Of a DNA stretch of 64,000 nt, positions 15,564 through 57,198 are shown piece by piece; the first letter of the stretch is position 1, and every line of letters starts with the position of its first letter. Both the position numbers and the translations under genes were made by a program. This stretch comes from Alphaproteobacteria bacterium. GTDB taxonomy: Bacteria; Pseudomonadota; Alphaproteobacteria; UBA828. Location: the NCBI GenBank assembly GCA_965220745.1, contig CBDCQT010000013.1:224001-288000 (forward strand). The letters are read 5' to 3'. A model generated the notes under the pieces. That model was not told the origin of the DNA and did not search any database. It was given only the letters and a program-made list of their open reading frames with translations.

Positions 15564-17498
15564 ATGGCCAACCTTGCCGAGGTCGAGACCTGGGAGGCGC
15601 CGGGCGAGATTGACCCCGGGACCTTCAGCGTCATCATGGGCTTGTACGAGAATATCGGGCGCGAGATGATGATCACGCTCGAGCGCTCGGCCTGGACCTC
15701 GATCATCAATCTTTGCCGCGACTTCTCCGTCGGTATCGCCGACGACGCCTGCAATCTGGTCGCGGTGCCGGATACCGCGCTGCCAGTCCAGGCCATGACC
15801 ATGCAGCGGATCATGAAGAGCACCGCCGAGTTCTTCGAAGGCGAGATCGAGGACGGCGACGTGCTGATGTGCAACCTCGCTTATCTCGGCAATACCCACA
15901 TGGGCGAGCCGCTGCTGGCGAGCCCGGTGTTCCACGAGGGCGAGCTGATGTTCTGGTCGATGGCGCGCGGCCATCTGGCGGACATGGGCACGCCCGCCTA
16001 CGTGCCCACCTACCCCTATTCCAAGGACCTCTACAGTGAGGGGCTCAAGATCCCGCCGATCAAGCTGTTCGAGCGCGGCAAGCTGCGCAGGGACATGCTG
16101 GAGCTCTACCTCGGCAATCTGCGCGCGCGCACCAACAGCCACGGCGACCTGATGGCGCACGTGGCCTGCACCTGGCGCGGCAAGGAGCAGCTCGCGTCCC
16201 TGATCGAACGGTACGGGCCGGAGACCGTGCGGCGCTACACCGCCGCGCTGCTCGACTACACCTCGCGCCGTGTCGGCGCCGATATCCGCAAGATGCGGCC
16301 CGGCACCTACTACGGCGAAGACTGGATGGACAGCAACGGCTACGGCACCAAGAACGTGCCGGTGCGCACCAAGCTGACCGTCGAAGACGACATGTGGATC
16401 GTCGACCTCTCCGAGTGTCCGCCGCAGATGATCGGCACGCTCAACGCCTCGCTCCATGGCGCGACGGAAGCCGCCGTGGTCGGCACGCTCGCCTTCTGCG
16501 TCGACCCCAGCATCCCGAAGAACGAGGGCTTCCACCGCCACGTCGAGATCATCTGCCCGGAGGGAACGATCTGCAGCGCGACCGCGCCGTTCTCGACCCA
16601 GCACTCGACCACGGGTGCGGCCGAGGTGGTTTACCGGGCGCTGATGCGCGCGGCCGCTGGCGCCACGCCCGAGATGAGCGCAGCCGGCAGCACGCTGATC
16701 CAGTGGAGCACCTACATCGGCGTCGACGAGCGCAACGGGGATAACAAGCTTTGGGCCTATGCCAACTTCAACGAGTGCGGCGGCGGTGGCGCGGCCAGCG
16801 GGGTGGACGGCAGCCCCTGCATGATGGAGATGGGAGTCGCTGGCGCCATGACCTTCATGAGCACCGAGATGGAGGAATGGCTCTATCCGGTGCTGGTCAA
16901 GCAGCAGGAGATCAAGACCGATTCACAGGGCGCCGGCCAGTGGCGCGGCGGGCCCGGTGTGACCACCCACGTCACCGGGCACGGCTCCAGCGCGATGGAC
17001 GTCTATACGGCGTGTTGGGGGCACAACAATTTGAGCCATGGGACCGTGGGCGGCAGCGGCGGAATCGGCGGCACGGTCTACGCCTTCGATCCGGCGAAGC
17101 CCGACGAGCGGCAGTTCTATTCCGGCCTCGGCAAGTTCCAGCTGCCCAAGGGCTGGGAGTATGTGGTGATCGCGAGCGGGGGTGGGGGTTACGGCGACCC
17201 CTACGACCGCGATCCCGCCGCTGTGGCCGAGGACGTCCGCGACGAGATCGTGAGCATCGAGGCGGCGCGGCATGACTATGGTGTGGTGCTCGATGCCGAA
17301 ACCCTCGCGGTGGACGAGGCGGCGACGGCGGCGCTCCGCGCCGAGCTCAAGGCGGAACGCGGGCCTGCGCCACTCAACTCGCCGATGGAGCCCGGCACCT
17401 CTACGCTGCGTCAGAGCCTGATGACCAACCGCGATACCTTTACCGACCTCGACCGCGACCCCGCCGAGGATTCCTCGCCCGACCTTTACGGCCGTTAG
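15564..17498 (+). CDS. Hydantoinase B/oxoprolinase family subunit (divergent)
   Basis: LERSAWTSII..CRDFS, GHLADMG, EGLKIPPIKL, DSQGAGQWRGG, GGGGYGDP. Confidence 0.9.
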   Translation: MANLAEVETWEAPGEIDPGTFSVIMGLYENIGREMMITLERSAWTSIINLCRDFSVGIADDACNLVAVPDTALPVQAMTMQRIMKSTAEFFEGEIEDGDVLMCNLAYLGNTHMGEPLLASPVFHEGELMFWSMARGHLADMGTPAYVPTYPYSKDLYSEGLKIPPIKLFERGKLRRDMLELYLGNLRARTNSHGDLMAHVACTWRGKEQLASLIERYGPETVRRYTAALLDYTSRRVGADIRKMRPGTYYGEDWMDSNGYGTKNVPVRTKLTVEDDMWIVDLSECPPQMIGTLNASLHGATEAAVVGTLAFCVDPSIPKNEGFHRHVEIICPEGTICSATAPFSTQHSTTGAAEVVYRALMRAAAGATPEMSAAGSTLIQWSTYIGVDERNGDNKLWAYANFNECGGGGAASGVDGSPCMMEMGVAGAMTFMSTEMEEWLYPVLVKQQEIKTDSQGAGQWRGGPGVTTHVTGHGSSAMDVYTACWGHNNLSHGTVGGSGGIGGTVYAFDPAKPDERQFYSGLGKFQLPKGWEYVVIASGGGGYGDPYDRDPAAVAEDVRDEIVSIEAARHDYGVVLDAETLAVDEAATAALRAELKAERGPAPLNSPMEPGTSTLRQSLMTNRDTFTDLDRDPAEDSSPDLYGR

Positions 17499-17539
17499 CA
17501 TTACCGCGCCGCCCGCGGGCGCCAAACCAGGAGCCATCC

Positions 17540-19606
17540 ATGGCTTATGTCGCCGCCATCGACATCGGCGGAACCCACACGGACTGCGTCGCATCCGACG
17601 GGCGTGCCGTCCAATCGGCCAAGGTGCCGACCACCGAGGACCCGACCGATGGCGTGATCCACGGCCTCGAGATGCTGGCAGGCAAGTTCGGCACCGATCT
17701 CGCCGCGCTGCTCGGCGATTGCGACCGCTTCGTGTACGGCTCGACCACCGCTACCAACATCTTCGTCCAGCGCCGCCTGCCGAAGACGGGATTGCTCTGT
17801 ACCCACGGGCATCGTGACATTCTGTGGTTCCGGGAGGGCAACAAGCCCGACCGCTGGAACCTCCGCACGCCGCCGCCGTGGTCGCTGCTCGACCGCCACC
17901 TCCGTCGGCCGATCCGCGAGCGGATCGATCAGACCGGCGCGGCGATCGTTCCGCTGGAGGAAGAGGACGTCCGGGAGGCGGCCAGAACGCTACGCGGCGA
18001 AGGGGTCGAGGCGGTTGCCATCGCTTTCCTCTGGTCGTTCATTAATCCGGCGCACGAGCGGCGCGCCCAAGCGATCGCGCGCGAGGAGCTGGGGGACGAC
18101 ATCCCGGTGCTCGCCAGCGTCGACATCCTGCCCGTGATCCGCGAGTGGGAGCGCACCTTCTGCACCGTGCTCAGCGCCGGGATCATGGTGGAGACCCGCG
18201 CGCATCTGGAGAGCTTCCGCGCGCGCATGAGCGAGCTCGGCCTCAAGGGCGAGCCGCTGGTGATGCAGTGCAACGGCGGCCACGCGACGATCGACGCCAT
18301 CCTGCGGAACCCGCTCCCGCTGGTGGCGAGTGGACCTGCCGGCGGCGCGCTCGCCGGCGTCTACTACGGCGAGCTGACCGACAGCACCGACGTCATGACG
18401 ATTGATACCGGCGGCACCAGCTTCGACGTGTGCGTGCTGCCGGGCCGCTCGATCCCGATCACCAGGGCCAAGCGTCTCGACACCGAGCCCATCTCCATCC
18501 CCTCGGTCGATGTCCACACCATCGGCGCGGGTGGCGGTTCGATCGCATGGTTGGACGGGGGTGGCGCGCTCCGCGTCGGCCCGCAGAGCGCGGGCGCCAA
18601 TCCTGGCCCCGTCTGCTACGGGCGGGGTGGAACCGAGCCGACGCTCACCGATGCGTTCGTGCATCTCGGCTACATCAACCCCGATTACTTCCTGGGTGGG
18701 CGCACCGCGCTCCAGCCGGCGCTCGCCGACCGGGCCATCACGGAGAAAATCGCCGAGCCTCTGGGGCTCCATCTCACCGGCGCCGCCGCGCGCATCGTCG
18801 AGATCATGAATAGCCGGCTCGCGGGCGCCATGCGGCTCCTCTCGGTCGAGCGTGGCATAGACCCGCGCCCCTACACGTTGCTGGTGGGCGGCGGCGCCGG
18901 GCCGCTGCAGGCAGGCACGCTTGCCAGCCGGCTCGGGATTTCCCGCGTGATCGTGCCGCGCTGGCCGGGTGTGCTCTGCGCATCGGGGCTGATGCGGGCA
19001 GACGTGACGCACAACCTGGTGCGCTCTTTCAACACCACCGCCGAGGCAGCGGATCTCGACAGGCTCTCCGCCCTCTACGACGAGATGGAGCGCGCCCTCA
19101 CGCGCACGCTGGAGGAGGAGGGCATCGCGCCGGAGGACATGACGCTCAGCCGCTTCATCGACGCCCGCTACTCCGGGCAGGTCTATGAGATCGAGACGCC
19201 TGTGCCCTCGGTCGAGACCCTGGCAGCGGACCACTTCAAGGCCATCGTCGCCGCCTTCGAGGACGCCCACGAGGTGCTCTACCACTACCGGATGGAGGGA
19301 TACCCGGCGGAGTTCGTGTCCTGCCGGGTAGAGGCGGTCGGACGGGTCGAGGCGGTGACGCCGGAAGAGCTGCCGGCGGCCGGGCCCGATCCCTCAGCGG
19401 CGGCGAAAGGAACTCGCCGCGCCTACCTGCCCGACGAAGGGCGCTTCGCGCCGGTCGAGACCTTCGACGGCGAAAGACTCGATCCCGGCAACCGCATCGC
19501 TGGCACCGCGATTGTTGAGACCGAGGGCTCGACCCTGGTGGTCTGGAAAGATCAGCGGCTGACGGTCAACCGTTACGGCGACTTCGAGATCGACATCGGC
19601 GGATAG
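17540..19606 (+). CDS. Hydantoinase A/oxoprolinase family ATP-binding subunit
   Basis: IDIGGTHTD, GSTTATN, SGPAGG, DTGGTSFD, IGAGGGS, GPQSAGANPGPVCYGRGG. Confidence 0.92.
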   Translation: MAYVAAIDIGGTHTDCVASDGRAVQSAKVPTTEDPTDGVIHGLEMLAGKFGTDLAALLGDCDRFVYGSTTATNIFVQRRLPKTGLLCTHGHRDILWFREGNKPDRWNLRTPPPWSLLDRHLRRPIRERIDQTGAAIVPLEEEDVREAARTLRGEGVEAVAIAFLWSFINPAHERRAQAIAREELGDDIPVLASVDILPVIREWERTFCTVLSAGIMVETRAHLESFRARMSELGLKGEPLVMQCNGGHATIDAILRNPLPLVASGPAGGALAGVYYGELTDSTDVMTIDTGGTSFDVCVLPGRSIPITRAKRLDTEPISIPSVDVHTIGAGGGSIAWLDGGGALRVGPQSAGANPGPVCYGRGGTEPTLTDAFVHLGYINPDYFLGGRTALQPALADRAITEKIAEPLGLHLTGAAARIVEIMNSRLAGAMRLLSVERGIDPRPYTLLVGGGAGPLQAGTLASRLGISRVIVPRWPGVLCASGLMRADVTHNLVRSFNTTAEAADLDRLSALYDEMERALTRTLEEEGIAPEDMTLSRFIDARYSGQVYEIETPVPSVETLAADHFKAIVAAFEDAHEVLYHYRMEGYPAEFVSCRVEAVGRVEAVTPEELPAAGPDPSAAAKGTRRAYLPDEGRFAPVETFDGERLDPGNRIAGTAIVETEGSTLVVWKDQRLTVNRYGDFEIDIGG

Positions 19607-19758: not shown

Positions 19759-20817
19759 ATGCCGGCCAACCCACTCTCGGAAATTCCCCTGATCGACATC
19801 GGCCCCTATTTCGGGGGTAGCCGCGCCGACAGGAAGCGCGTCGCCGACGAAATCAGCCATGCCTGCGAGCGGATCGGCTTCTTCCTGGTTTCCGGCCACC
19901 AGGTGGACCCGGCGCTCATCGAAGGCGTGCAACGCGAGTCGAAGGCGTTCTTCGGTCTCCCGCTCGAGGAGAAGCTCGAAATCAAGCAGCGGAAGGAGGA
20001 AAAGGGAAGCCGGGGCTACGAGCCTGTTGGCACGGAGCAGCTCTCGGCGACGATCGGCGTGGAGACACCGCCCGACCTCAAGGAATCCCTCTCGATCGGA
20101 CCGCTGGCGGTGCCGGACCATCCCTCCTGCCACACCGAGGAAGCGCTACCCCTTTTCAGGTCCAACATGTGGCCCGAGAATCCGGCAACGCTTCGCCCTA
20201 CCTACGAGGCGTACATCAGGGCCCTGGACCGGCTAAGCGAGCACTTGCACCGGCTTGCGGCGATCGCGTTCGACCTGCCCGAGGATCACTTCGAGGACAA
20301 GATCGACCGGGGTTTCAGCATCCTCCGCGTGCTCAACTATCCGGATCAACGGGAGGAGCCCGAGGAGGGTCAGCTCCGCGCCGGAGAGCATTCGGACTAT
20401 GACAATCTGACCATCTGCCTGATCGAGGACAAGCCGGGCGGCCTGCAGGCGCGGAGCCCGAATGGTGCCTGGGTGGACGTGCCGTTCGTCGCCGGCTCGT
20501 TCGTGGTCAATATCGGCGATTTCCTGATGCGCTGGACCAACGACCGCTGGAAGTCCACGCGGCATCGTGTGGTCAACCCACCACTCGCCGCCGGGGAGCG
20601 CCTCTCCGCCTGCCACTTCATCATGCCGAACCACGATGCAGTGATTGAGTGCCTGCCGACCTGCCACGGGCCCGATCAGCCGGCGAAATACCCATCGATC
20701 CTCGCCGGTGACTACATGATCGAGAAATTCGAGAGCCAATCGTCCGGCGAAGAGTGGAGCGACGAGGACAGAGAGAAGTTCGGCACCGCGGATACGGAAT
20801 CGCGCTTCACCCATTGA
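19759..20817 (+). CDS. Isopenicillin N synthase-like 2OG-Fe(II) oxygenase (paralogue 1)
   Basis: DIOX_N-type start IPLIDI...ACERIGFF..GH, HSD, distal His STRHRV, and RLS 2OG motif. Confidence 0.9.
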   Translation: MPANPLSEIPLIDIGPYFGGSRADRKRVADEISHACERIGFFLVSGHQVDPALIEGVQRESKAFFGLPLEEKLEIKQRKEEKGSRGYEPVGTEQLSATIGVETPPDLKESLSIGPLAVPDHPSCHTEEALPLFRSNMWPENPATLRPTYEAYIRALDRLSEHLHRLAAIAFDLPEDHFEDKIDRGFSILRVLNYPDQREEPEEGQLRAGEHSDYDNLTICLIEDKPGGLQARSPNGAWVDVPFVAGSFVVNIGDFLMRWTNDRWKSTRHRVVNPPLAAGERLSACHFIMPNHDAVIECLPTCHGPDQPAKYPSILAGDYMIEKFESQSSGEEWSDEDREKFGTADTESRFTH

Positions 20818-20862: not shown

Positions 20863-21225
20863 CTACGCGTCGGCCGGCACCCAGGGCGGGAGCGGCGTGC
20901 CGCCACAGTAGTGGTTCTCAGCCGGGTTCTCGCGGAACACGACGTAGATGTCGGCGGCGTCGACGCCCATCGTATCGTTCAGAATTTCGGCGATGGCATC
21001 AACCAGCGCCTTCTTGCGTTCGGGCTCGCGGCCTGGCCTCAAGTCGATCTCGACCAGGGGCACGCCATCGCCGATCTCGGCGACCACCTCGCGCACGGCG
21101 ACGTAGTCGTACTTGGTCTGCTTGGGCGCGAGGGTCTTGAGCACCGCCGTCTTGACCGCGGTGCGGATGGTTTCCTGCATTCCTGCAGGCGTACCGGCGG
21201 GGACTTCGAGGCGAATGACGGGCAT
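20863..21225 (-). CDS. Tautomerase superfamily protein (two fused beta-alpha-beta units)
   Basis: N-terminal Met-Pro (catalytic Pro1), GREPERKKALVDAI, DIYVVFRE. Confidence 0.78.
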   Translation of the reverse strand: MPVIRLEVPAGTPAGMQETIRTAVKTAVLKTLAPKQTKYDYVAVREVVAEIGDGVPLVEIDLRPGREPERKKALVDAIAEILNDTMGVDAADIYVVFRENPAENHYCGGTPLPPWVPADA

Positions 21226-21278: not shown

Positions 21279-22172
21279 TCACGAATCGCCGGGCACCGTG
21301 CCCTGGGGCAGGCTTTCGACGTGGGCGCAGATGTCGCGCGGGCGGGTCAGCCAGATTCGGTCGCGCTGGGGCGCGATGTGCTCGAAGAAGCGGCGCAGGT
21401 GGCGTATGCGATAGGGCCGCCCCATCACGAAGGGATGGAGCGAGATCGGGAACACCAGGGGCTGCCCCTCACTCTGGGCCAGCATCTCGTCGAAGCCGTC
21501 GATCAGCATGTCCACGAACTCGCGCGCGGTGTGGCCGTACCAGACGACGCCGCGGGTATCGTTGCACTCGACCGGATAGGGCATCGCCAGGATGCGGCCG
21601 GCGCGGGTCGTCATCCAGATCGGTTGATCGTCGCAGGTCCAGTCCATGAAGTAGCGATAGCCCGCCTCCTGCAGCAGGTCGGGAGTGAGAGCGCTGTTGG
21701 AGAGCCAGGGGCTCATCCAGCCCGCTGGGCGGCCGCCTTCATGGCGTTCGATGGTCCGGGTGACCTCGGCAATCAGCGCGGCCTCGGCCGCCTCGTCGAG
21801 GTGCTCCTGCATGTTCGAGTTGGTGATGCCGTGGCCCAGGATCTCGTGACCGCGCTGCCTGAGCGCCTCCGGAATGTCAGGGCAGTGCTCGTAGATGCCG
21901 AGGTTCATCTGTGCTTCGATGGGGATGTCGAAGGTGTCGAACAGCTCGAGCATGCGCCAAATGCCGACCCGATTGCCGTAGTCGCGCCACGAATAGACGC
22001 TGTGGCTGTTGGCCTGGTCCGGCGGGGCGATAGCCGCGCCCTTGCCCTCGCCGAAGCTGAACTGCTCGATGTTGACCGCGACGTAGACGGCGAGACGCGT
22101 GCCGTTCGGCCAGTCGTAGACCGGGCGGCTGGTAATGCTGGAGTAGGGGTAGCGGCCGTGGGTGCGAATCAT
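21279..22172 (-). CDS. Polysaccharide deacetylase-fold protein, PuuE/allantoinase-like
   Basis: WPNGTRLAVYVAVNIE, WRDYGNRVGIWR, HEILGHG, GWMSP, DDQP, LHPFVMGRP.R. Confidence 0.87.
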   Translation of the reverse strand: MIRTHGRYPYSSITSRPVYDWPNGTRLAVYVAVNIEQFSFGEGKGAAIAPPDQANSHSVYSWRDYGNRVGIWRMLELFDTFDIPIEAQMNLGIYEHCPDIPEALRQRGHEILGHGITNSNMQEHLDEAAEAALIAEVTRTIERHEGGRPAGWMSPWLSNSALTPDLLQEAGYRYFMDWTCDDQPIWMTTRAGRILAMPYPVECNDTRGVVWYGHTAREFVDMLIDGFDEMLAQSEGQPLVFPISLHPFVMGRPYRIRHLRRFFEHIAPQRDRIWLTRPRDICAHVESLPQGTVPGDS

Positions 22173-22234
22173 GACGGCTTGCGTCCCGCCTGCCGCCGCA
22201 GATAATCCAGACTCATCTTGTCCTGCGCCGCAGC

Positions 22235-22564
22235 CTAGCCGACCGGATTGAAGTCGTGCTCGCCCACGCCCTGAACCAGGGTCACGCGGCAGATCTGGCC
22301 GTCCTTGCCGGAGACGCGGTGCGCGGTCATGGGCAGCACGACGCAGTGGTTGCCGGGTTCAAGCTCGTGGCGGGCGCGCGGCGCCCGGGTCTCGATCACC
22401 ACCGTGCCTTCGACGCCGACGAACACGTCGGTCACGATCGAGTGGTAATGCCACGGAACCTCCTCGCCCGCGCCGATGGTCATGACCTGGACGCGCATGC
22501 CATCGGCCTCGGCGACGATGTCGTGGTCGGTGATCGTATAGGGCAGGTCTTCGAGCGCCGTCAT
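22235..22564 (-). CDS. Cupin domain protein
   Basis: VPWHYHS..TD.F..VEG and P.TAH cupin motifs. Start at ATG 22564. Confidence 0.8.
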   Translation of the reverse strand: MTALEDLPYTITDHDIVAEADGMRVQVMTIGAGEEVPWHYHSIVTDVFVGVEGTVVIETRAPRARHELEPGNHCVVLPMTAHRVSGKDGQICRVTLVQGVGEHDFNPVG

Positions 22565-22703
22565 GACGTTTTCCGGTTCAGTCTTTGGCTGTGACCGACC
22601 AAGATAGCGCCTTCGGCCATGCCTGTGGATGGATTCGGGCGGTTTCTCCCGGATCGCGAGTCTCGCTAGCATGGGGCGCTGACGGTCTGGGAAGGGCGGT
22701 CGC

Positions 22704-23882
22704 ATGGCGCAGGACGCGCATCCCTGCTGGGCGGTTTACGATCTGGATCGGCTGCGCGCGAACCTCGCGGAGATTCGCCGCCGCATCGGGCCCGATCAGG
22801 CCTGCATCGCCGCACTCAAGGCCAACGCTTACGGACATGGAGCGGTGCCCGTGGCGCGGGCGCTCGATGGGGAAGGGCTGGCGGCGTTCATGACCGGCTC
22901 TTTCGACGAGGCCTGCCGGTTGCGTGCGGAAGAGCTGCGCACCCCGGTGGTCATGTTCGCGGGCGCGCTGCCGGCGGGGATGGCCGATCTCGTCGGCGCC
23001 GGGCTGGTGCCGACGGTGGTCGACCGGGCGAGCGCCGAAGCTGCGGCGCGCGCGGCGCCGGTTGGTGAGGCGGTTCCGGTCTACGTCAAGGTCAACGCCG
23101 GACTGGGGCGGCTGGGTGTGCCGCTCGAGGCGGCCGAAGTCTTTCTCGTCGAGCTGGCCGCCTTGCCGGGTCTCGACGTCCAAGGGCTCTACACGCACCT
23201 GCCGTTCGGCGACGCGCAGGGGCGCGACTGGGCCGATCAAAGGCTCGCCGCCGTCGATGGGCTGCTCGCGCGCCTCGCGGCGCGCGGTCTCGTGCCGCCG
23301 CTCACCCAAGCACGCGCAAGCGCCTGCGTCGCTGCCGGACTGTCCGATAAGGCCAATGCGGTTTGCGTCGGCCACCTGCTTTACGGCCTCTCGCCCTTCG
23401 CCGATGACTCGCTCGCGGACCTCTCGGCGTACCGGCCTCTCCTGGCCGAGATCGGGAGCCGGCTGATACAGGTCTCCGACCACCCGCAGGGCAGCGATAT
23501 CGCGATCGGCGGCAGCTACGGCATACGGCACGGCCGGCGCACCGGCGTCGCGCCGATCGGTGTCGCTCAAGGTTTGGTTCGACCCGTGCCGGGCAGCCGG
23601 CCGCAGGCGCTGGTACGGGGCAGTCGGGCGCCGATCCTCGCGGTATCGCTCGAACATCTGGTCTTGGATCTCACAGACACCGAGGCCGCTGCAGTCGGCG
23701 ATACGGTCCGGTTGCTCGGCGGCGAAGGCGACGCAGCGATCAGGCTGGACGAGCTCGCCGCGTGGTTCGGGGTGACGCCGCTCGATACGGTGATGGCGCT
23801 CTCCGGCCGACTGCCCGCGCACTACCGCGACGCAGCCGGCGGGGCGGCCGGATCGACTCCGCACCGAAGCGAGGCCCGATGA
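22704..23882 (+). CDS. Alanine racemase-fold (fold type III) PLP enzyme with a degenerate active site
   Basis: DLDRLRANL, ALKANAYGHG (PLP Lys), GLGRLG, GLYTH, G.LLYG. The GYG, GYADG and VRPG motifs are altered. Confidence 0.85.
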   Translation: MAQDAHPCWAVYDLDRLRANLAEIRRRIGPDQACIAALKANAYGHGAVPVARALDGEGLAAFMTGSFDEACRLRAEELRTPVVMFAGALPAGMADLVGAGLVPTVVDRASAEAAARAAPVGEAVPVYVKVNAGLGRLGVPLEAAEVFLVELAALPGLDVQGLYTHLPFGDAQGRDWADQRLAAVDGLLARLAARGLVPPLTQARASACVAAGLSDKANAVCVGHLLYGLSPFADDSLADLSAYRPLLAEIGSRLIQVSDHPQGSDIAIGGSYGIRHGRRTGVAPIGVAQGLVRPVPGSRPQALVRGSRAPILAVSLEHLVLDLTDTEAAAVGDTVRLLGGEGDAAIRLDELAAWFGVTPLDTVMALSGRLPAHYRDAAGGAAGSTPHRSEAR

Positions 23883-24664
23883 CGAGCCATTCCGATCTCC
23901 CTCGACTGAGCGAGGAGCAGTGCGCCCGCTACCGCGATGACGGCTTCGTGTTCCTGCCAGATCTCGTTTCCAGGGCGGACATCGACCGGGTGCGGGACGA
24001 GCTCGACGGGCTGTGCCGGCTCACCCGCGACGAGGTCATCCTGGAGAATGACGGCCGCACGGTGCGCTCGGTGATGAACCCGCATGCGTTCAGTAATCTG
24101 TTCGGGCGCTTCGTGCGGCATCCGGCGCTCCTCGGCCCGGTGCGTCAGCTTTTGGAGCGGGAGACCTACCTGTTCCAGTGCGTGATCAACATGAAACGCC
24201 CGTTCCATGGCGCGGTCTGGCAATGGCACCAGGATTTCCCGACCTATTTCCACGATGACGCGATGCCTGAGCCCCGCCTGGTCAACGCGCTGGTCTTCAT
24301 CGACGAGGTGCGCGAGTTCAACGGGCCCCTGATGCTCGTCCCCGCCAGCCACAGGGCACCGGCCTACGAGACCACCGTGGACGATACGACCACCAGCTAT
24401 CCGCTGCGGGCGGCGGATGAGGCGGTAGTAGGCAGGCTCGCGAGCGAACGGGGGATAGAAGCGCCGAAGGGCGGGCCGGGCTCGGTCATCTTCGCCCACA
24501 CCAACATTGTTCACGGCTCCGGGCCGAACATGTCGCCCTGGCCGCGCACGATGGCCTCGATCACCTACAATGCCATCGACAACAAACACGGCCGCTCGCG
24601 GCGCCCCGATTGGGTGGTGCGCCGTGACTTCGAGGTTCTTGAACCGATCACTTCGCCGATCTGA
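23879..24664 (+). CDS. PhyH-family 2OG-Fe(II) dioxygenase, proline-4-hydroxylase/EctD-like
   Basis: ENDGRTVR, WQWHQDF (HxD), NGPLMLVPASH, IVHGSGPNMSPWPR, TYN..DN. ATGA overlap with the upstream gene. Confidence 0.88.
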   Translation: MTSHSDLPRLSEEQCARYRDDGFVFLPDLVSRADIDRVRDELDGLCRLTRDEVILENDGRTVRSVMNPHAFSNLFGRFVRHPALLGPVRQLLERETYLFQCVINMKRPFHGAVWQWHQDFPTYFHDDAMPEPRLVNALVFIDEVREFNGPLMLVPASHRAPAYETTVDDTTTSYPLRAADEAVVGRLASERGIEAPKGGPGSVIFAHTNIVHGSGPNMSPWPRTMASITYNAIDNKHGRSRRPDWVVRRDFEVLEPITSPI

Positions 24665-24690
24665 GGAAGACGGTGGCGGCCACCCAGGTG

Positions 24691-25611
24691 TCAGGAAGGC
24701 AGAGCGTCGATGCAGGTGGGCATGGCCTCCTCCACTGAGACCGGGCGAATGCCCAGATCGTCCAGCGTCGACGCCTGGCTGTCGACGACATTGTCCCGCT
24801 TCATCAGAGTTACTTGATCGCGGGTGAGCGGCGGATTGGGGTGCGCTGCCATCGCGGCCGCCAGAATGTCCCACGCAGGGAAGGGGCACGGGACCATGAG
24901 CGCTCGTCCGGCCACCCGGTCGCGCACCAATCGCACCAACTCTTTGTACGCGTAGATCCTTGGCCCTCCGAGCTCGTACACCCTGCCTCGCGTGGAGGGA
25001 TCGGCCAGCACCCGTATGCAGGCTTCGGCGACGTTGCCGACGAACACGGGTTGCAGTCTGGTGCTCCCGGTTCCGAACAGGGGCATGATCGGCGATCGCT
25101 GCGTCATGCGCGCGAGTGTGTTGAGGAAGGAATCGCCCGGCCCGAATATCACGCTCGGGCGCAGGATCGTGACGTCGTCGAACGCGTCCTTGACGAGCGT
25201 TTCTCCGATCCCTCGGGCGCGAACGTAGGGTGAGGGCGATCCGGGATCGGCGCCCACTCCCGAGATGTGGACCAACCGCTCGGCCCCCGCCTGCTTCGCC
25301 TGTCGGGCCACATGTAGGGCCCCCTGGCCGTGGACCCTGTCGAATGTCGCGCCGCCCTTCTCGACATAGTGACCGACGGTATTGACGACCGAGGCTGATC
25401 CCTCCACGGCACGCGCGACCGTCGCCTCGTTCCAAACATCGGCCTGGATGAGCTCCATCCGGCCGTCCGCGCTAAACTCGGTGAGGAACGTTGCGCGGTC
25501 CGGGTGACGCACGACCACACGCACGCCGTATCCCGCCTCCGCCAAGCATTTGACGATCTGGCGGCCCAGAAATCCCGATCCCCCGAAGACCGTTACGGGT
25601 TTCGTCTCCAT
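24691..25611 (-). CDS. NAD(P)-binding SDR, complex I NDUFA9-like
   Basis: VTVFGGSGFLGR, ILRPSVIFGPGD, LQPVFVGNVA, YELGGP. Confidence 0.85.
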   Translation of the reverse strand: METKPVTVFGGSGFLGRQIVKCLAEAGYGVRVVVRHPDRATFLTEFSADGRMELIQADVWNEATVARAVEGSASVVNTVGHYVEKGGATFDRVHGQGALHVARQAKQAGAERLVHISGVGADPGSPSPYVRARGIGETLVKDAFDDVTILRPSVIFGPGDSFLNTLARMTQRSPIMPLFGTGSTRLQPVFVGNVAEACIRVLADPSTRGRVYELGGPRIYAYKELVRLVRDRVAGRALMVPCPFPAWDILAAAMAAHPNPPLTRDQVTLMKRDNVVDSQASTLDDLGIRPVSVEEAMPTCIDALPS

Positions 25612-27399: not shown

Positions 27400-27405
27400 G
27401 TGGGG

Positions 27406-27773
27406 GTGAAGGGTGACACGTTGAGGCCGGTCGAATGGGTCGCTTCGAGTAGGGCGGATTTGAAGGGTTTTCCGGAGGCCGTGCGAGCACGCGTGGCTTC
27501 GCGATCTACCAGGCCCAGACCGGTCTCCGTCACCGCGACGCGAAGTCGCTCAAAGGCTTCGGCTCTGGCGTTCTGGAGGTGGTCTCACGCTACGACGGTG
27601 ACACATTCAGGGCGGTCTATACGGTCCGTTTCGAGGCGGCGGTCTATGTCCTGCACGTCTTCCAGAAGAAGGCCAAGCGGAGCGTGACAACGCCGAAATG
27701 GGAGCTCGATGTGGTTCGGCAACGGTTACGGGCTGCCGAGCGACACTACCGAGACACACATGGCGGAGACTAG
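27406..27773 (+). pseudogene. RelE/HigB-like (Gp49/DUF891) toxin with a 1-nt frameshift near 27495
   Basis: Frame A gives RPVEWVASSRADLKGFPEAVRARV. Frame B continues GFAIYQAQTG..KSLKGFGSGVLEV...TFRAVY...VLHVFQKKAK. One extra G at 27495-27496 fuses the two. Confidence 0.82.
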
Positions 27774-27777
27774 AACC

Positions 27778-28116
27778 ATGGGCAACCCGGACCCGACGGT
27801 TGAGCGCGGCAGCGGCAATGTCTTTGCCGATCTGGGCCTCCCGGACGCCGATGCGCACTTGTTGAAGGCGGAACTCGTCAGCCGCATCGACGGAATCGTC
27901 CGGCAACGCGGCATCACTCAGACCGAGGCCGCACGGTTGCTCGGCCTATCTCAGCCCGACGTGTCGCGGCTGCTGCGCGGCGACTTTCGCGCATATTCGC
28001 TCGAGCGCCTGTTCCGCCTGCTGACCGCGCTCGGTCGCGACGTGGACATCGTCATCCGGCAACCGCGTTCAACCGGCGGCGGCAGGCTCCGAATCGCTGC
28101 CACCGAAATTAACTGA
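27778..28116 (+). CDS. XRE-family HTH antitoxin (HigA-like)
   Basis: GSGNVFADLGL, KAEL, TQTEAARLLGLSQPDVSRLLRG, SLERL...LGRDVDI. Confidence 0.88.
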   Translation: MGNPDPTVERGSGNVFADLGLPDADAHLLKAELVSRIDGIVRQRGITQTEAARLLGLSQPDVSRLLRGDFRAYSLERLFRLLTALGRDVDIVIRQPRSTGGGRLRIAATEIN

Positions 28117-32052: not shown

Positions 32053-32142
32053 CAGCCGTCCGCTGCGGCATGATTGCGCCTTGACGGGTTAACGCGCGAA
32101 CAGGCAAGCTTCCGCAACTTTTCGGGACGCGAAGGCAGAACC

Positions 32143-33165
32143 ATGACCCTTCAGCAGGTTCCCGTTATCGACATCGCGCCGTTCCTCGGCGGAGAGCGCG
32201 ACGGCAAAGCGCGGGTGGCAGCCGAGGTCAAGCAGGCGTGCGAAGACATCGGCTTCTTCGTCATCACCGGCCACGGAGTCGACCCGGCGCTGACCGTGGC
32301 GACCCACGACGTCAGCCGGCGCTTTTTCGATCTTCCGTTTGAAGAGAAGATGACGATCGAGCGCTGGGCCGACGACGTCATCCGGGGCTACAGCCCGGCT
32401 CTGAAGGAATGCCTGGCCGAAAGCCGCGGCGAGCGGGGTCCGGGCGATCTCAAGGAATCGCTGACCGTCGGCCCGCCGTTCGTGCCGGACGAGCCCTACT
32501 ATCACTGCGCCGAGGCCGGCCAGCACTTCGTCGAGAATCGCTGGCCGACGCGTCCCGCCGAGCTCAAGGAGACGTGGATCGCGTACTGGGACGCGATGGA
32601 GCAGCTTGCCTTCACGCTCATGCGCATCTTTGCTTGCGCCCTCGACCTCGGCGAAGACTATTTCGATACGCGGGTCGACAAGCACGTCAGCCAGTTCCGG
32701 GTGCTCAACTACCCGGACCAGCCTGCCCCACCGCTGGAAAACCAATTCCGTGCCAGCGCGCACTCGGATTTCGGCGCCTGCACGATCTGTGCGATCGAGG
32801 ACAAGCCTGGCGGTCTCCAGGCCATGAATCGGGACGGCGAGTGGGTGAACGTGCCGGTGGTGCCCAATGCGTTCAGCATCAATCTCGGCGACCAGATGCA
32901 GATGTGGACCAACGACATGTGGGTTTCCACCCTGCACAGGGTCGTCAATCCGCCGCGGGACAAGGCGAACGACAGCCGCCGACAGTCGATGATCTTCTTC
33001 TTCTATACGAACTACGACTGCAGGATCGAATGCTTCCCGGCCTGTCAGAGCGCGGACAATCCGGCCAAGTACCCGCCGGTCACCACAAGCAAGAACCTGC
33101 TCGACAAGTTCCTGATGATGACCGCCATCGGCGCCTCGGGACAGAGGGCGTCCGATCAGCCATAA
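32143..33165 (+). CDS. Isopenicillin N synthase-like 2OG-Fe(II) oxygenase (paralogue 2)
   Basis: VPVIDI..ACEDIGFF..GHGV, HSD, STLHRV, RQS. A TTGACG-N18-CAAGCT promoter-like sequence lies upstream. Confidence 0.9.
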   Translation: MTLQQVPVIDIAPFLGGERDGKARVAAEVKQACEDIGFFVITGHGVDPALTVATHDVSRRFFDLPFEEKMTIERWADDVIRGYSPALKECLAESRGERGPGDLKESLTVGPPFVPDEPYYHCAEAGQHFVENRWPTRPAELKETWIAYWDAMEQLAFTLMRIFACALDLGEDYFDTRVDKHVSQFRVLNYPDQPAPPLENQFRASAHSDFGACTICAIEDKPGGLQAMNRDGEWVNVPVVPNAFSINLGDQMQMWTNDMWVSTLHRVVNPPRDKANDSRRQSMIFFFYTNYDCRIECFPACQSADNPAKYPPVTTSKNLLDKFLMMTAIGASGQRASDQP

Positions 33166-38172: not shown

Positions 38173-39087
38173 ATGGCCACGAAGAAAGACATTCAGGTTT
38201 GTTTCAATCCCCATTTCGATTCGGTTTCACTCTGGATCGGATCGTTCGGCGGCGCCGATTCGCCCTGCGACATCTCGCGCGGCGTCTTCGCGGCGCGGCA
38301 GGGGGTGCCGCGTATCCTCGAAATGATGGACCGCTACGGCATCAAGACCACGTGGGACATCACCGGCCACTCGATCGAGAGCTTTCCGAAGGAATCGGAG
38401 CTGATCGTGAAGTACGGCCACGAGCTGGGCGTGCACGGCTACACGCACGAGAACCCGCTCGCCATGTCGCGCCAGCAGGAGGCCGACGTGCTCGACAAGT
38501 GCATCGAGCTGGTGACCGACCTCTGCGGCGTGCACCCGGTCGGCTACGTCGCGCCGTGGTGGGAGCTCAGCCCCAACACCATCGACCTGCTGCTCGAGCG
38601 CGGCTTCCTCTACGACCGCAGCGTGATGGAGGACGACTACACCCCGCACTACCTGCGCAGTGGCGATAGCTGGACCAAGATCGACTATACCCAGGAGGCC
38701 AAGACTTGGATGAAGCCCTGGCAGCCGGGGGAGGCGGTCGACCTGGTGGAGCTGCCGGCGAGCTGGTACCTCGACGACGCGCCGCCCATGATGTTCGTGA
38801 AAACCTTCCCGAACAGCCACGGCTGGGTCAATCCACGAGATGTCGAGGACATCTGGCGCGACCAGTTCGACTGGATCTACCGCCACTACGACTATGCGAT
38901 CTACACCTGCGTGATCCATCCGGACTGCGCTGGCAAGCCGCAGGTGCTGATGATGCTGGAGCGGATCTTCGACCACATTCTGGCGCATACCGGTGTACGC
39001 ATGATCACGATGCGGGAGATGGCCGAGGACTTCAAACGCCGCCATCCCTTCAACGGCACGACCGAAGGCGCGCCCGCCGCGGACTAA
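38173..39087 (+). CDS. Polysaccharide deacetylase-fold protein, H. pylori PgdA/PuuE-like
   Basis: WIGSFGGADSPCDISRG, HELGVHGYTHENP, GYVAPWWE, SWYLDD.PP, HPD..G.PQV. Confidence 0.88.
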   Translation: MATKKDIQVCFNPHFDSVSLWIGSFGGADSPCDISRGVFAARQGVPRILEMMDRYGIKTTWDITGHSIESFPKESELIVKYGHELGVHGYTHENPLAMSRQQEADVLDKCIELVTDLCGVHPVGYVAPWWELSPNTIDLLLERGFLYDRSVMEDDYTPHYLRSGDSWTKIDYTQEAKTWMKPWQPGEAVDLVELPASWYLDDAPPMMFVKTFPNSHGWVNPRDVEDIWRDQFDWIYRHYDYAIYTCVIHPDCAGKPQVLMMLERIFDHILAHTGVRMITMREMAEDFKRRHPFNGTTEGAPAAD

Positions 39088-39174
39088 GCGAGGGCGCGAA
39101 CCGCGCCGTTGGCCCCGCGTCCTGCGCCGAGGGGCCGGCGGCGGAAGCACCGAAGCGCAGTGAAAGGAGCTCCC

Positions 39175-40233
39175 ATGTCGACCGGATCCCTCGGCGAGAT
39201 TCCGCTCATCGACCTCAGCCCCTATTTCGCAGGCGACCCGGCCGACAAGCGCCGGGTCGCGGACGAGATCAGCCGCGCCTGCGAGCGCATCGGTTTCTTC
39301 ATGGTCTCGGGCCACGGGGTGGACCCGGCGCTTATCGAGCGCGCGCGTCGTGAATCCCTGACGTTCTTCGGCCTGCCGATGAAGGAGAAGCTTGCCATCA
39401 GGAAGCCAGAGGGCGATTTGGCGGTCCGCGGTTACGAGCCGGTGGGCACGGAGCACCTCTCGGCGACGATCGGTGTGGAGACGCCGCCCGACCTGAAGGA
39501 ATCGATCTCTTTCGGGCCTATCGAGGCGTTCGATCATCCGTCCTGCCATACAGAGGCAGCCGCGCCCTGCTACGCGCCCAATATCTTTCCGCAGCACCCG
39601 GCGGGGCTCCGTCAGACCATCGAGGACTACATCCGGGCCCTCGACCTGCTCGGCTGGCATCTGCACCGGCTCGCGGCCATCGCCTTCGATCTGCCCGAGG
39701 ACCATTTCGACGCCATGCTCGAAAGGGGGTTCAGCATCCTCCGCGTGCTGAACTATCCCGAGCAGCAGAATGCGCCCAAGGAAGGGCAGCTTCGCGCCGG
39801 CGAGCACTCGGACTACGACAACCTCACCATCTGCCTGATCGAGGACAAGCCAGGCGGCCTGCAGGCGCGCGGCCCGGACGGCACCTGGGTTGACGTGCCG
39901 GCTATCCCCGGCTCGTTCGTGGTCAACATCGGCGACTTCCTGATGCGCTGGACCAACGACCGCTGGAAATCCACGCGGCACCGCGTGCTCAACCCGCCAC
40001 ACACGTCCGGGGACCGCCTCTCCTTCTGCCACTTCATCGAGCCCAACTACGACGCGCTGATCGAGTGCCTGCCGACCTGCCACAGCCAGGAACAGCCGGC
40101 CAAATACCCGCCGATCACGGCCGGCGCCTACATGCTCGAGAAATTCTCCAGCCAGGAGAGCGGCCGCGAGTGGGACGACGATGACAGTGAGAAGTTCGGT
40201 ACCGGAGACACCGAGACGCGCTTCGTCAACTGA
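39175..40233 (+). CDS. Isopenicillin N synthase-like 2OG-Fe(II) oxygenase (paralogue 3, close to paralogue 1)
   Basis: Same length (352 aa) and colinear with 19759..20817. Has HSD, STRHRV and RLS. Confidence 0.9.
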   Translation: MSTGSLGEIPLIDLSPYFAGDPADKRRVADEISRACERIGFFMVSGHGVDPALIERARRESLTFFGLPMKEKLAIRKPEGDLAVRGYEPVGTEHLSATIGVETPPDLKESISFGPIEAFDHPSCHTEAAAPCYAPNIFPQHPAGLRQTIEDYIRALDLLGWHLHRLAAIAFDLPEDHFDAMLERGFSILRVLNYPEQQNAPKEGQLRAGEHSDYDNLTICLIEDKPGGLQARGPDGTWVDVPAIPGSFVVNIGDFLMRWTNDRWKSTRHRVLNPPHTSGDRLSFCHFIEPNYDALIECLPTCHSQEQPAKYPPITAGAYMLEKFSSQESGREWDDDDSEKFGTGDTETRFVN

Positions 40234-40252: not shown

Positions 40253-41353
40253 CTAATCGTCCACGGCCTCCCGCATCCATTGCTGGAGCGTCCGGAGGGA
40301 GTGTTCGGAGTTCAGCCCGCCGCGGGGATCGACCACGAGCGGGCCGGGGCGGTACCCGCGACTCTTGAGCCCCTGCGCCACGCTTTCGACCAGCCGGATA
40401 TCCTCCGCGACCGTGGTCTCCAGATCTTGCGCCGCAAGCTGCCGGATCACCACGCTCTCGTCACCGCCCGGCGTGTACCAGCCGCGCCATACGGTGCACG
40501 TGTCCACGTCGTGGGCGCGCCAGTGGTAGGTGTTCAGCACGTTGCCCGGATAGACCTGGAACGAGAACATCGGCCAGAGGAAGAACGTGCGGTACTCCCC
40601 GGCATGGGGCACCGACAGGTCGATCGGGTAGCTCATCCGCTCCAGGTCCTGGCACTCGGTCGTGTGGCGCAGGACGTAGCCTTCCCCTGAAGGCTGGATG
40701 TCGTAGGTCTCGGGCCGGATCACGCCGGTCGCGAAGGTCGGATGGCGCAGCACGCAGTGGTAGCATTCGGAGTGGTTCTCGACCGAGACCTTCCAATTGC
40801 AGGCCTCCGGGACCTCGATCCATTCCAGCGGCGCGAGTGCTCCGACGTCGGGCACGTAGTCCGCGAGTTCCTCCCGCACGCCCGGATACCACGCATCCAT
40901 CGGCGCCGCGTCGTCATCGAGGTTGACGAAGACGAAGCCGTGCAAGCTCTCGCTCCGCACCGCCGTCAAGCGAATGGATGAACCATCGAAGCCGGGAACC
41001 GACTCCACGTTCGGCCCGCTGCGGAAGGTGCCTGTCAGCTCGTAGGACCAGGCGTGGTAGGGGCAGACGATCGCGCGCGTCGTGCCGGCGCCTTCCACCA
41101 GCCGATGCCCCCGGTGCTGGCACACGTTGTAGAAGGCGCGCAGCACGCCGTCGCGCCCGCGAATGCAGAACAGGCTCTCGCCCGCAATCTCGCATGTGAA
41201 GTAGTCGCCCGGCCCGCGCGCCTGGTTCTCGTGCCCGGCGAACTGCCAGGTGCGGGAGAGCAGGCCCACGCGCTCCTTCTCGAAGATGGCCGGATCGGTG
41301 TAGTAGCGTGCGGCGAGCGAACGGACGGGCGCTGGCGGGTCTTGACCTGTCAT
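40253..41353 (-). CDS. Rieske non-haem iron oxygenase alpha subunit (CntA/choline monooxygenase-like)
   Basis: NVCQHRG and CPYHAW Rieske ligands, NWK..ENHSECYHC...HP, ED..LVESV..G. Confidence 0.88.
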   Translation of the reverse strand: MTGQDPPAPVRSLAARYYTDPAIFEKERVGLLSRTWQFAGHENQARGPGDYFTCEIAGESLFCIRGRDGVLRAFYNVCQHRGHRLVEGAGTTRAIVCPYHAWSYELTGTFRSGPNVESVPGFDGSSIRLTAVRSESLHGFVFVNLDDDAAPMDAWYPGVREELADYVPDVGALAPLEWIEVPEACNWKVSVENHSECYHCVLRHPTFATGVIRPETYDIQPSGEGYVLRHTTECQDLERMSYPIDLSVPHAGEYRTFFLWPMFSFQVYPGNVLNTYHWRAHDVDTCTVWRGWYTPGGDESVVIRQLAAQDLETTVAEDIRLVESVAQGLKSRGYRPGPLVVDPRGGLNSEHSLRTLQQWMREAVDD

Positions 41354-41521
41354 TCCCGACGATCCTCCCCGGCGGGCGATGCGGCGCGCGCGGCGCCGGC
41401 CACGATAGGCGAAACGGCTGTCCATCGCCCAGTAGAATGTCCATGCGAGTCGCTTGGTTGGGAGTTCCCCAATGATTCCATCTTTAGACGCACATCACGT
41501 CGGCAACATCGCGGTCGTGCC

Positions 41522-47409: not shown

Positions 47410-47721
47410 ATGACCGCACGCATCGCCATCCCTGCCGACGGCATCGCCGCCTTCTGCGAGCGCTGGCAGGTGACGGAGCTCGCGCTGTTCGGCTCCGTGC
47501 TGCGCGACGACTTCGGTCCGGACAGCGACATCGACGTGCTGGTCTCGTTCGACGACACGGCCCGGCACACGCTCTTCGACATGGCCCGCATGGAAGGGGA
47601 GCTCAAGACGCTCTTCGGACGCGATGTGGACCTGGCTGAACGTGCAGGCATCGAGACGAGCAGGAACTACATACGCCGCAAGGCCATTCTCCAGTCGGCC
47701 GAGACCATCTATGCGGCATGA
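47410..47721 (+). CDS. Minimal nucleotidyltransferase (MntA-type antitoxin)
   Basis: LFGSVLRDDFGPDSDIDVLV matches GS-x10-DxD. Also GRDVDL. Confidence 0.9.
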   Translation: MTARIAIPADGIAAFCERWQVTELALFGSVLRDDFGPDSDIDVLVSFDDTARHTLFDMARMEGELKTLFGRDVDLAERAGIETSRNYIRRKAILQSAETIYAA

Positions 47722-48052
47722 GAATGCCCTGTTGCTCGACATGCTGATGGCCGCGCGCGAAGCGCAAGACATGGCACGTGGGGCGACACTCTCCGACTTC
47801 AAGCAGAGCCGGACTTTGCAACTTGCGATCATGAAGGCGGTGGAGATCGTTGGGGAGGCAGCGTCACGAGTCGGTGCGGATACCAAGCAAGCGCACCCCG
47901 ACATCCCCTGGGCGGACATCGTCGGGATGCGGAATCGCCTCGTCCACGGCTATTTCGATATAAACCTCGTGCGCGTGTGGGAGACGGTGGAGCAGGATAT
48001 CCCCCGCCTCATCGCCCAACTCGAAGGTTTGGTTTCCGAAGAGTCGTCGTAG
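47711..48052 (+). CDS. HEPN/DUF86 RNase toxin (HepT-type)
   Basis: EIVGEAA, IPWADIVGMRNRLVHGY (Rx4HxY). Overlaps the MNT gene. Confidence 0.9.
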   Translation: MRHENALLLDMLMAAREAQDMARGATLSDFKQSRTLQLAIMKAVEIVGEAASRVGADTKQAHPDIPWADIVGMRNRLVHGYFDINLVRVWETVEQDIPRLIAQLEGLVSEESS

Positions 48053-55024: not shown

Positions 55025-55126
55025 TTCGGGCCGCGGGCGCGGGCCGGGGTCGGCAGGAGCCGGCCACCGGCCGTTGCGGTGCGCCAGCCCGGCTATGACC
55101 GAACCCGGCGATCGGGAGGAGGAAGA

Positions 55127-57181: not shown

Positions 57182-57198
57182 GGCGGGGGAGAAGCGAC

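Follow-up and report, generated by a model that had tools for sequence, protein, structure and literature searches.

The window examined here, a stretch of 64,000 nucleotides from an alphaproteobacterium of the UBA828 lineage (assembly GCA_965220745.1, contig CBDCQT010000013.1, positions 224,001 to 288,000), contains two overlapping genes that encode an alanine racemase (Alr)-like enzyme and a dioxygenase related to hydroxylases of free amino acids. The Alr-like protein has the pyridoxal 5′-phosphate (PLP) lysine of its family, lacks both the catalytic tyrosine and the arginine that partners the cofactor, and belongs to a branch of similarly altered proteins; its reaction is probably one of vitamin B6 chemistry that has yet to be described, with an unusual amino acid as substrate. 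An original prediction for this locus, made from the DNA sequence, had proposed a hydroxylate-then-cleave module, and the coordinates, reading frames, ATGA overlap and codon positions of Cys221 and Ile268 that it gave all proved exact. The features of the pair, in window coordinates and with primes denoting residues of the partner subunit, are as follows:

22704..23882, plus strand: gene for the Alr-like PLP enzyme (open reading frame, ORF, of 392 aa)
23879..24664, plus strand: gene for a PhyH-family Fe(II)/2-oxoglutarate (2OG) dioxygenase of the free-amino-acid hydroxylase type (ORF of 261 aa)
23879..23882, plus strand: ATGA overlap between the hydroxylase start codon and the Alr-like stop codon, read from the sequence
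22818..22820, plus strand: codon of Lys39, the retained PLP Schiff-base lysine and D-face base (phmmer; invariant in alignment A1)
23364..23366, plus strand: codon of Cys221, which takes the place of Arg219, the residue hydrogen-bonded to the pyridine nitrogen of PLP (phmmer)
23505..23507, plus strand: codon of Ile268, which takes the place of the catalytic Tyr265′ (three phmmer alignments and MAFFT)
23646..23654, plus strand: codons of Ser315-Leu316-Glu317, at the position of Cys311′-Met312′-Asp313′ (phmmer)
24182..24184, plus strand: codon of Val102 within the QCVIN motif of the hydroxylase (alignment to solved relatives)

Both ORFs have the third-position GC bias of real genes (GC3 of 0.82 for the Alr-like ORF and 0.84 for the hydroxylase ORF; window GC 66-69%). 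The first protein matches both Pfam domains of alanine racemase, Ala_racemase_N (PF01168, 3.7e-45) and Ala_racemase_C (PF00842, 7.2e-19). Its AlphaFold model, built from a 31-sequence alignment, has a mean predicted local distance difference test score (pLDDT) of 92.9 and superimposes on solved alanine racemases with Z scores of 38-40.5 and a root mean square deviation (rmsd) of 2.4-2.8 Å over ~375-380 residues, the best match being the C. difficile Alr (4lus; Z 40.5, rmsd 2.6 Å, 378 residues). The least confident internal part of the model is the loop at residues 261-280 (block means of 78 and 77). As its score of 192.8 bits exceeds the cut-off of 168 bits for the NCBI equivalog TIGR00492, an annotation pipeline would name the gene alanine racemase, the mislabeling that had been anticipated. 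The same label is carried by all of the relatives with a source name (5/5 among the 120 hits listed), and by the protein atlas clusters among the rows shown (3/3).

Active site residues were mapped by phmmer alignments to solved Alr, including the G. stearothermophilus enzyme (1bd0/1sft), which had high posterior probability across the motifs, and by a second, independent MAFFT alignment of 122 rows that produced the same columns. With Alr/DadX (1sft/1bd0, 4lus) the protein shares its two-domain fold and, residue for residue against 1bd0, the PLP lysine (Lys39, intact as originally described), Tyr43, the carbamylated-Lys129/Arg136 clamp and His166 (His165 in the query); Lys39 and Arg136 are invariant in alignment A1. 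In contrast to Alr/DadX it does not have Tyr265′, Arg219, His200, Tyr284′, Met312′, Asp313′ or Tyr354. Arg219 is replaced by Cys221, Tyr265 by Ile268, Tyr284 by Val287, Tyr354 by Leu360 and His200 by Gln202, while C311/M312/D313 correspond to S315/L316/E317 with a one-residue deletion. The departures from the Alr motifs noted in the original prediction at positions 219, 265′, 284′ and 312′ were borne out by both mappings. Across more than 50 clusters at 50% identity, the residues that bind PLP and the substrate carboxylate do not vary. From these alignments we consider the protein to be an Alr-fold PLP enzyme devoid of the Lys/Tyr two-base apparatus, one that is predicted to bind PLP and the carboxylate of an alpha-amino acid in the manner of Alr. 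The face opposite Lys39 has no recognizable acid/base residue and is predicted to be lined by Ile268′, Phe168, Val287′, Leu316′ and Leu360. By homology with Alr dimers, Glu317 and Ser315 would be placed in the active site of the partner subunit. In Alr, Asp313′ pairs with Lys39, and by analogy the conserved Glu317 would be likelier to tune Lys39 than to be the missing base.

A tyrosine four residues beyond the Tyr265 position, in the sequence GGSY, had been put forward as a possible displaced Tyr265′. By sequence alignment this residue, Tyr272, falls on the +4 aromatic of canonical enzymes (Tyr269 in G. stearothermophilus). Of the canonical rows, 51/53 hold Y, F, W or H in this column, whereas no more than 23/57 rows of the branch described below have Tyr there. 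By sequence, Tyr272 is therefore the ordinary +4 residue and not a shifted catalytic tyrosine.

The substitutions recur across an entire branch of the family and hence are not chance changes in a single gene. We aligned the query with 121 sequences of 330-470 aa taken from the 150 best representatives in a library of 1.8 billion proteins. Of the resulting 122 rows, 53 have both Arg219 and Tyr265, 57 have neither and retain Lys39 and an acidic residue at position 313, and 12 are mixed, truncated or frameshifted. In a FastTree phylogeny of 119 rows, which leaves out three frameshifted or truncated ones, a branch with a support of 100 has all 53 canonical rows on one side, and the query lies, also with a support of 100, inside a set of 58 rows that all lack Arg219 and Tyr265. 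Position 219 is Arg in 53/53 canonical rows, whereas in the clade it is C (34 rows), A (13), S (6), N (2) or D (2) (n = 57). Position 265, Tyr in 53/53 canonical rows, is variable or gapped in the clade (gap in 17/57, Tyr in 0/57). Other positions have changed in concert: His200 is Gln in 54/57 clade rows, Met312 is Leu in 43/57, Tyr354 is Leu in 34/57, Ile222 is His in 43/57, Tyr284 is aliphatic or Arg, and the position three residues after His166 is Phe (Phe168 in the query) in 49/57. The only new ionizable residue kept almost throughout the clade is Glu317, position 313 being Glu in 56/57 clade rows as against Asp in 50/53 canonical rows. Both known positions for an L-face base are hydrophobic in the query, and by alignment there is no conserved replacement base visible. 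A contig scan with the PLP-lysine motif common to all Alr (A1) returned mostly canonical enzymes among the matches listed, two of its loci (L039 and L040) being informative.

In the searchable literature, a scope that does not reach into subscription journals, we found no description of a class of Alr lacking Tyr265 and Arg219, the only related paper being one on ornithine racemase (OrnR) of Salmonella and Clostridium (Phillips et al., 2025; PMC13397332). OrnR is likewise a member of the Alr superfamily without the catalytic tyrosine, the only such member described so far, and it is presented in that article as unique in the superfamily for using a cysteine as acid/base in place of the tyrosine; it keeps Arg220, has Asn in place of His166 and has the invariant catalytic Cys three residues on. 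Set against this published description, the protein studied here has Cys221 at position 219, keeps its histidine (His165) and has Phe168 at the His+3 position. Since OrnR keeps Arg220 and replaces His166, the branch is not of the OrnR type, and none of the ornithine-racemase models in NCBIfam matched the Alr-like protein at E<=0.01. The branch is a second and larger group of tyrosine-less enzymes besides ornithine racemase, one without an obvious substitute base.

The product of the second gene is, judged by its conserved residues, an intact hydroxylase of a free amino acid. It matches PF05721 (PhyH, 1.6e-28), and its best matches in the PDB are entries titled as trans-3/4-proline hydroxylase H11 (7dzz and others; 2.4e-52), the leucine 5-hydroxylase GriE (5nch; 1.4e-46) and EctD (4mhr, 4q5o; 5.9e-36), with 31-35% identity to H11 and GriE. 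Its model (pLDDT 73.7) has the same fold as these enzymes, with Z scores of 28.1 to GriE and H11 and 24 to EctD. The HxD...H facial triad (His117, Asp119 and His212, which align to GriE His110/Asp112/His210) and the 2OG arginine (Arg223) are shared with all three and are invariant in 11 aligned sequences. Arg242, kept in at least 90% of these sequences, aligns to GriE Arg242, which salt-bridges the substrate carboxylate (PMC5676206). The hydroxylase differs from its solved relatives in the QCVIN motif, as the original prediction had pointed out: its counterparts in the alignment are QFKIN (H11 and GriE) and QSRLN (EctD), with Val102 in place of the Lys or Arg, and wherever a hydroxylase is linked to an Alr-like gene this residue is V, I or G. 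An identity as EctD was considered and is ruled out by its score on the EctD equivalog TIGR02408 (164.9 bits, cut-off 336.5).

The pairing of the two genes, whose conservation the original prediction had named as a test, recurs over long distances, although it is not obligatory. Of the loci of the genus with enough flanking sequence, all 10 have the hydroxylase immediately downstream. The pair is present in 10 of the 11 congeners with an orthologue of the Alr-like gene, and none of nine tested congeners without the Alr-like orthologue has an orthologous hydroxylase. The pair also occurs in distant genomes at 37-48% identity (L138, L139, L144 and L040). A metagenome contig scan with a motif specific to the Cys221 subgroup found 35 loci, which after removal of two duplicates and seven without downstream sequence left 26 that were informative; in 13 of these the hydroxylase lies on the same strand within ~120 bp downstream, at 43-86% identity for the Alr-like protein and 47-88% for the hydroxylase. 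The genes around the pairs include SBP_bac_3 and Peripla_BP_6 binding proteins for amino acids, regulators of the AsnC/Lrp or GntR type, class III aminotransferases and a HAD hydrolase. Two apparent fusions of the Alr-like and PhyH proteins among metagenome gene calls (P0058 and P0110, 653 aa) were rejected as frameshift read-throughs, the linker being an alternative frame upstream of the hydroxylase start.

The Alr-like gene is accessory and patchy in its distribution and is not a housekeeping racemase, in which respect, as in its coupling to a hydroxylase, it is unlike alr/dadX. Among 20 congeners, 11 have an orthologue (181-199 bits), one has a 41%-identical paralogue and eight have no Alr-family hit above 45 bits (G002, G005, G010, G013, G016, G017, G018 and G020), several of the latter being 98-100% complete and some of them complete single-contig genomes. 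Within the order the divergent branch was found in 12/20 congeners and in 0/28 genomes of other genera (E<=1e-90). A class-wide sample yielded 17/401 genomes at E<=1e-60, a count that includes four canonical enzymes, and a phylum-wide sample yielded 0/400 other genomes at E<=1e-100 with four candidates scored per genome. In one congener the orthologue (G006:C92:86770-87900, locus L037) has an in-frame TAG at approximately residue 122, so that it is either a pseudogene or was misread in sequencing. Frameshifts interrupt two of the metagenome copies as well; these three copies lead us to regard the gene as dispensable.

We considered whether the enzyme might nevertheless be the organism's own source of peptidoglycan D-alanine, racemizing alanine by an altered mechanism. 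A search for a canonical alr elsewhere in the host genome, which is 99.96% complete, found no other Ala_racemase_C gene and none other above the TIGR00492 cut-off, the five other Ala_racemase_N hits all being of other architectures. One of these, the ORF at L002 (382 aa, 37.9 bits on TIGR00492), has a HAKTHK lysine motif and is presumably D-threonine-aldolase-like. As ddl is present (288 bits), D-alanine is needed. Against this role, the catalytic Tyr and Arg are missing, the eight congeners without an Alr-family hit imply that the genus makes D-alanine by other means, and neighboring genera do carry a canonical alr, which was found at 220-260 bits in most of the genomes of other genera searched. 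A candidate source of D-alanine is a Dat-like class IV transaminase (G000:C13:514588-515397 in the host genome, 246 bits, under the cut-off of 277), which was also identified in all five tested congeners without the Alr-like gene (237-252 bits), so that each of the six genomes checked carries one. We therefore judge a housekeeping role to be very improbable. The genus appears to be without a canonical alanine racemase; a genus apparently living without any alanine racemase is of interest in itself.

The reading that we tentatively favor, as the likeliest of several that each fall short of being probable, is that of a cleavage or elimination of a hydroxylated amino acid with Lys39 as the single base, carried out within an accessory two-gene cassette. 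The two overlapping genes would act on one free amino acid other than alanine. The hydroxylase would bind the free amino acid by its carboxylate and hydroxylate its side chain. The Alr-like enzyme would use the retained scaffold (Lys39 as Schiff-base lysine, the carboxylate clamp of Arg136 and Lys129, and His166), and having lost every L-face residue (Tyr265′, Arg219, His200, Tyr284′ and Tyr354) could hold the substrate side chain perpendicular to the cofactor in the resulting hydrophobic pocket. Two outcomes would then be open to it, a retro-aldol break of the bond between C-alpha and C-beta that releases glycine together with an aldehyde, or an elimination of the newly added hydroxyl, in each case with the proton chemistry supplied by Lys39. 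The loss of the L-face residues and the hydrophobic nature of that face point to a single-base enzyme instead of a two-base racemase, and with a hydroxylase as partner the simplest reading would be cleavage or elimination at the newly hydroxylated carbon. The fold, the residues kept and lost, the accessory status and the recurrence of the pair have been shown; a common substrate of the two enzymes, the order of their steps and the type of reaction are inferred.

The hydroxylate-then-cleave proposal plausibly fits the hydrophobic L-face together with the precedent of an engineered enzyme, the Y265A mutant of G. stearothermophilus Alr (Seebeck and Hilvert, 2003, as described in the review PMC6411801), which likewise lacks Tyr265, has an enlarged L-face pocket, retains His166 and gains aldolase activity on beta-hydroxy amino acids. 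This enzyme differs from the Alr-like branch in being the product of one laboratory mutation, with Arg219 and the remaining tyrosines still in place, D-specificity and a low efficiency; the branch is natural and ancient and has many coordinated changes. Racemization calls for two bases, and an Alr scaffold with a single base is known for other reactions as well: the OrnR paper reports that Y265A/S mutants of Alr transaminate D-alanine and that Alr eliminates halide from beta-haloalanines (PMC13397332).

The fold-type III lyases of the D-threonine aldolase and D-serine dehydratase type have the same N-terminal PLP barrel (Ala_racemase_N) and act on beta-hydroxy amino acids; they have a different C-terminal domain, whereas the Alr-like protein carries Ala_racemase_C, and the host genome's own candidate for that type, the ORF at L002, is the low-scoring hit on TIGR00492 given above. 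The order of steps also has a parallel in carnitine synthesis, in which trimethyllysine hydroxylase performs a 2OG-dependent beta-hydroxylation and hydroxytrimethyllysine aldolase a PLP-dependent retro-aldol cleavage to glycine and an aldehyde. The logic is the same as that proposed here; the protein families differ for both steps, and the pathway is eukaryotic and biosynthetic.

Several observations weigh against a single-base cleavage. By the names of the 49 PDB matches, every characterized two-domain member of the family is a racemase. Ornithine racemase lacks Tyr265 and still racemizes (PMC13397332). The stereochemistry of the two steps has no obvious match, because the specificity of the engineered Y265A enzyme as an aldolase is for beta-hydroxy amino acids of D-configuration (review PMC6411801) while H11, GriE and EctD take L-substrates. 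Among the annotated neighbors in ~30 loci there is no aldehyde dehydrogenase, which a catabolic retro-aldol route would be expected to need. With Cys, Ala or Ser at position 219, the cofactor remains a poor sink for electrons, just as it is in racemases. The other 13 of the 26 informative metagenome loci have no adjoining hydroxylase, and in congener G003 an 85%-identical Alr-like gene lies beside an ABC transporter in a genome without an orthologous hydroxylase (best match 43%); with half of its close relatives unpaired, the enzyme must have a function that is independent of the hydroxylated substrate.

The mismatch of D- and L-specificity, the lack of an aldehyde dehydrogenase, the unpaired half of the loci and the family's record of racemases together make racemization nearly as likely as cleavage, and only slightly do we prefer the latter. 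Such an enzyme would be a racemase or 2-epimerase for a bulky or hydroxylated amino acid, using Lys39 together with a second base of an unconventional kind (Ser315′, water or the carboxylate of the substrate), and we regard it as a possibility of still tentative standing. It could make a D-amino acid from the environment available to an L-specific hydroxylase, or it could epimerize the hydroxylated product, comparable to hydroxyproline 2-epimerase, which is of another family. Lys39 and the carboxylate clamp are intact, position 219 is non-acidic as in racemases, and ornithine racemase indicates that loss of Tyr265 is compatible with racemization. The neighboring genes would also suit the interconversion of amino acids: binding proteins and AsnC/Lrp or GntR regulators (L180, L189, L194, L040 and L155) and, in the wider branch, ATP-dependent hydantoinase A/B (L140, L142, L143 and L159), amidases, amidohydrolases and CN-hydrolases (L142, L146, L141 and L202) and a flavoprotein of amine-oxidase type, or sarcosine-oxidase-like (L137).

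A second recurrent neighborhood, without the hydroxylase, can be read in the same direction. It was found in five of the 13 unpaired loci and in two with too little flanking sequence to be counted (L177, L200, L209, L188, L185, L196 and L181; Alr-like proteins at 46-49% identity) and comprises a double Cupin_3 protein, an S-adenosylmethionine (SAM) methyltransferase, a class I/II aminotransferase (called as 823 aa in two loci) and an EryCIII-like glycosyltransferase. The set has the look of a small cluster for biosynthesis, and this context of aminotransferase, methyltransferase, bicupin and glycosyltransferase resembles biosynthesis that makes a D-residue. What speaks against racemization is the apparent absence of a second base: no conserved acid/base residue occurs in the Tyr265 column or at the catalytic Cys position of ornithine racemase, which is Phe, and nothing is left of the His200/Arg219/Tyr265 network by which the second base is tuned. 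Ser315′ could serve as the second base, like the Ser in fold-type II serine racemase, and its position is Ser, Cys or Thr in 53/57 clade rows; however, these residues are equally common in canonical enzymes (50/53 rows), in which they are not the base.

We also considered that the enzyme performs some other PLP reaction or none, its link to the hydroxylase being regulatory or positional only. The options include a transaminase-like half reaction, as suggested by the transamination of D-alanine by Y265A/S Alr (PMC13397332), a reaction that depends on decarboxylation and acts on an alpha,alpha-disubstituted amino acid, or a protein that binds PLP without catalysis. The heterogeneous contexts across the branch and the three interrupted copies (the in-frame TAG in G006 and the two frameshifted metagenome genes) are in keeping with this explanation. 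Conversely, the invariance of the PLP- and carboxylate-binding residues over the more than 50 clusters argues for selected catalysis on an alpha-amino acid, the recurrence of a same-strand and nearly abutting hydroxylase at 43-56% identity goes beyond positional accident, and the kept Arg136 and Lys129 speak against decarboxylation. On balance we consider this explanation unlikely.

Returning to the single-base cleavage, a bolder form of it, which we hold to be unlikely, is that the branch comprises the first natural lyases on the two-domain Alr scaffold, with C-beta hydroxylation by the PhyH enzyme followed by a cut to glycine and an aldehyde. If true, the two genes together would make up a hydroxylate-then-cut route by which unusual or D-amino acids are scavenged. 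The substrate of the hydroxylase could then be a D-amino acid, matching the D-specificity expected of an Alr pocket opened on its L-face, and such a substrate could explain the Lys-to-Val change in the hydroxylase.

Whichever reaction is catalyzed, thousands of entries from this branch are labeled alanine racemase in databases, and the label misleads metabolic reconstructions, for instance of D-alanine supply or of cycloserine targets. The reaction, once worked out, would either extend the mechanisms of PLP racemases or add a natural lyase to the scaffold, and the conserved partnership with a hydroxylase of free amino acids provides a direct experimental route to the substrate.

The features upstream of the pair are:

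22568..22703, no strand assigned: divergent intergenic region of 136 bp between the cupin start (22567, minus strand) and the Alr-like start, the presumed promoter region of the cassette by position only
22235..22567, minus strand: cupin, neighbor of the gene pair
21279..22172: PuuE-like hydrolase, neighbor of the gene pair
20863..21225: tautomerase, neighbor of the gene pair

The promoter of the two-gene cassette is placed by position only, because a scan of 22200-24900 for the sigma-70 consensus gave no match; a terminator scan of the same region gave one terminator-like site, at chance level. Both genes are matched in part by contigs of one metatranscriptome library (X20) that come from relatives at ~90% identity; one contig of 190 nt spans the ATGA junction. 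This is a weak hint that both genes are expressed, as DNA carry-over is possible and the contigs give neither strand nor level.

The cupin, the PuuE-like hydrolase and the tautomerase adjoin the gene pair in several congeners, and the original prediction had suggested that they may belong to the same pathway, a proposal that the results do not support. Among 21 genomes of the genus, orthologues occur in 19 (PuuE-like), 17 (cupin) and 11 (tautomerase), including genomes without the pair, and in four genomes without the pair (L211-L214) the PuuE-like and cupin genes stand as a pair on their own. The five-gene module of tautomerase, PuuE-like, cupin, Alr-like and PhyH genes that loci L153-L157 had suggested was rejected on the same grounds; these three genes are neighbors that are inherited independently and are not demonstrated partners. 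Two other candidate assignments were discarded. The similarity of the cupin to ectoine synthase is too weak (E 0.0055; 0.17 to 5bxx), and the HpcH-type "aldolase" beside the pair in L155, which could be read as a 4-hydroxy-2-oxoacid aldolase, is assigned by NCBIfam to the CitE/RipC acyl-CoA lyases. In two congeners, at L156 (6262-7893) and L157, a GMC-family FAD oxidoreductase lies between the tautomerase and the PuuE-like gene, which are adjacent in the window.

The window also contains two hydantoinase B/A (oxoprolinase-type) pairs, at 15564-19606 and 55079-59124; paralogues of the Alr-like branch adjoin such pairs elsewhere. Three paralogous DIOX_N/2OG-FeII_Oxy oxygenases occur within 21 kb (19759-20817, 32074-33165 and 39109-40233), accompanied by another hydrolase of the polysaccharide-deacetylase type (38173-39087) and by a Rieske oxygenase (40253-41425), and the region forms an island in which oxygenases and amide hydrolases abound. 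At 27400-28116, between two class III aminotransferase genes, a 95-aa ORF without a Pfam match is followed by an HTH_37/HTH_3 protein (27709-28116); the two may be a toxin-antitoxin pair and are present in L153 and not in L154. Lastly, an ORF at 47624-48052 encodes a HepT-like ribonuclease (PF01934, 2.9e-26) that is probably the toxin half of a HepT/MntA pair.

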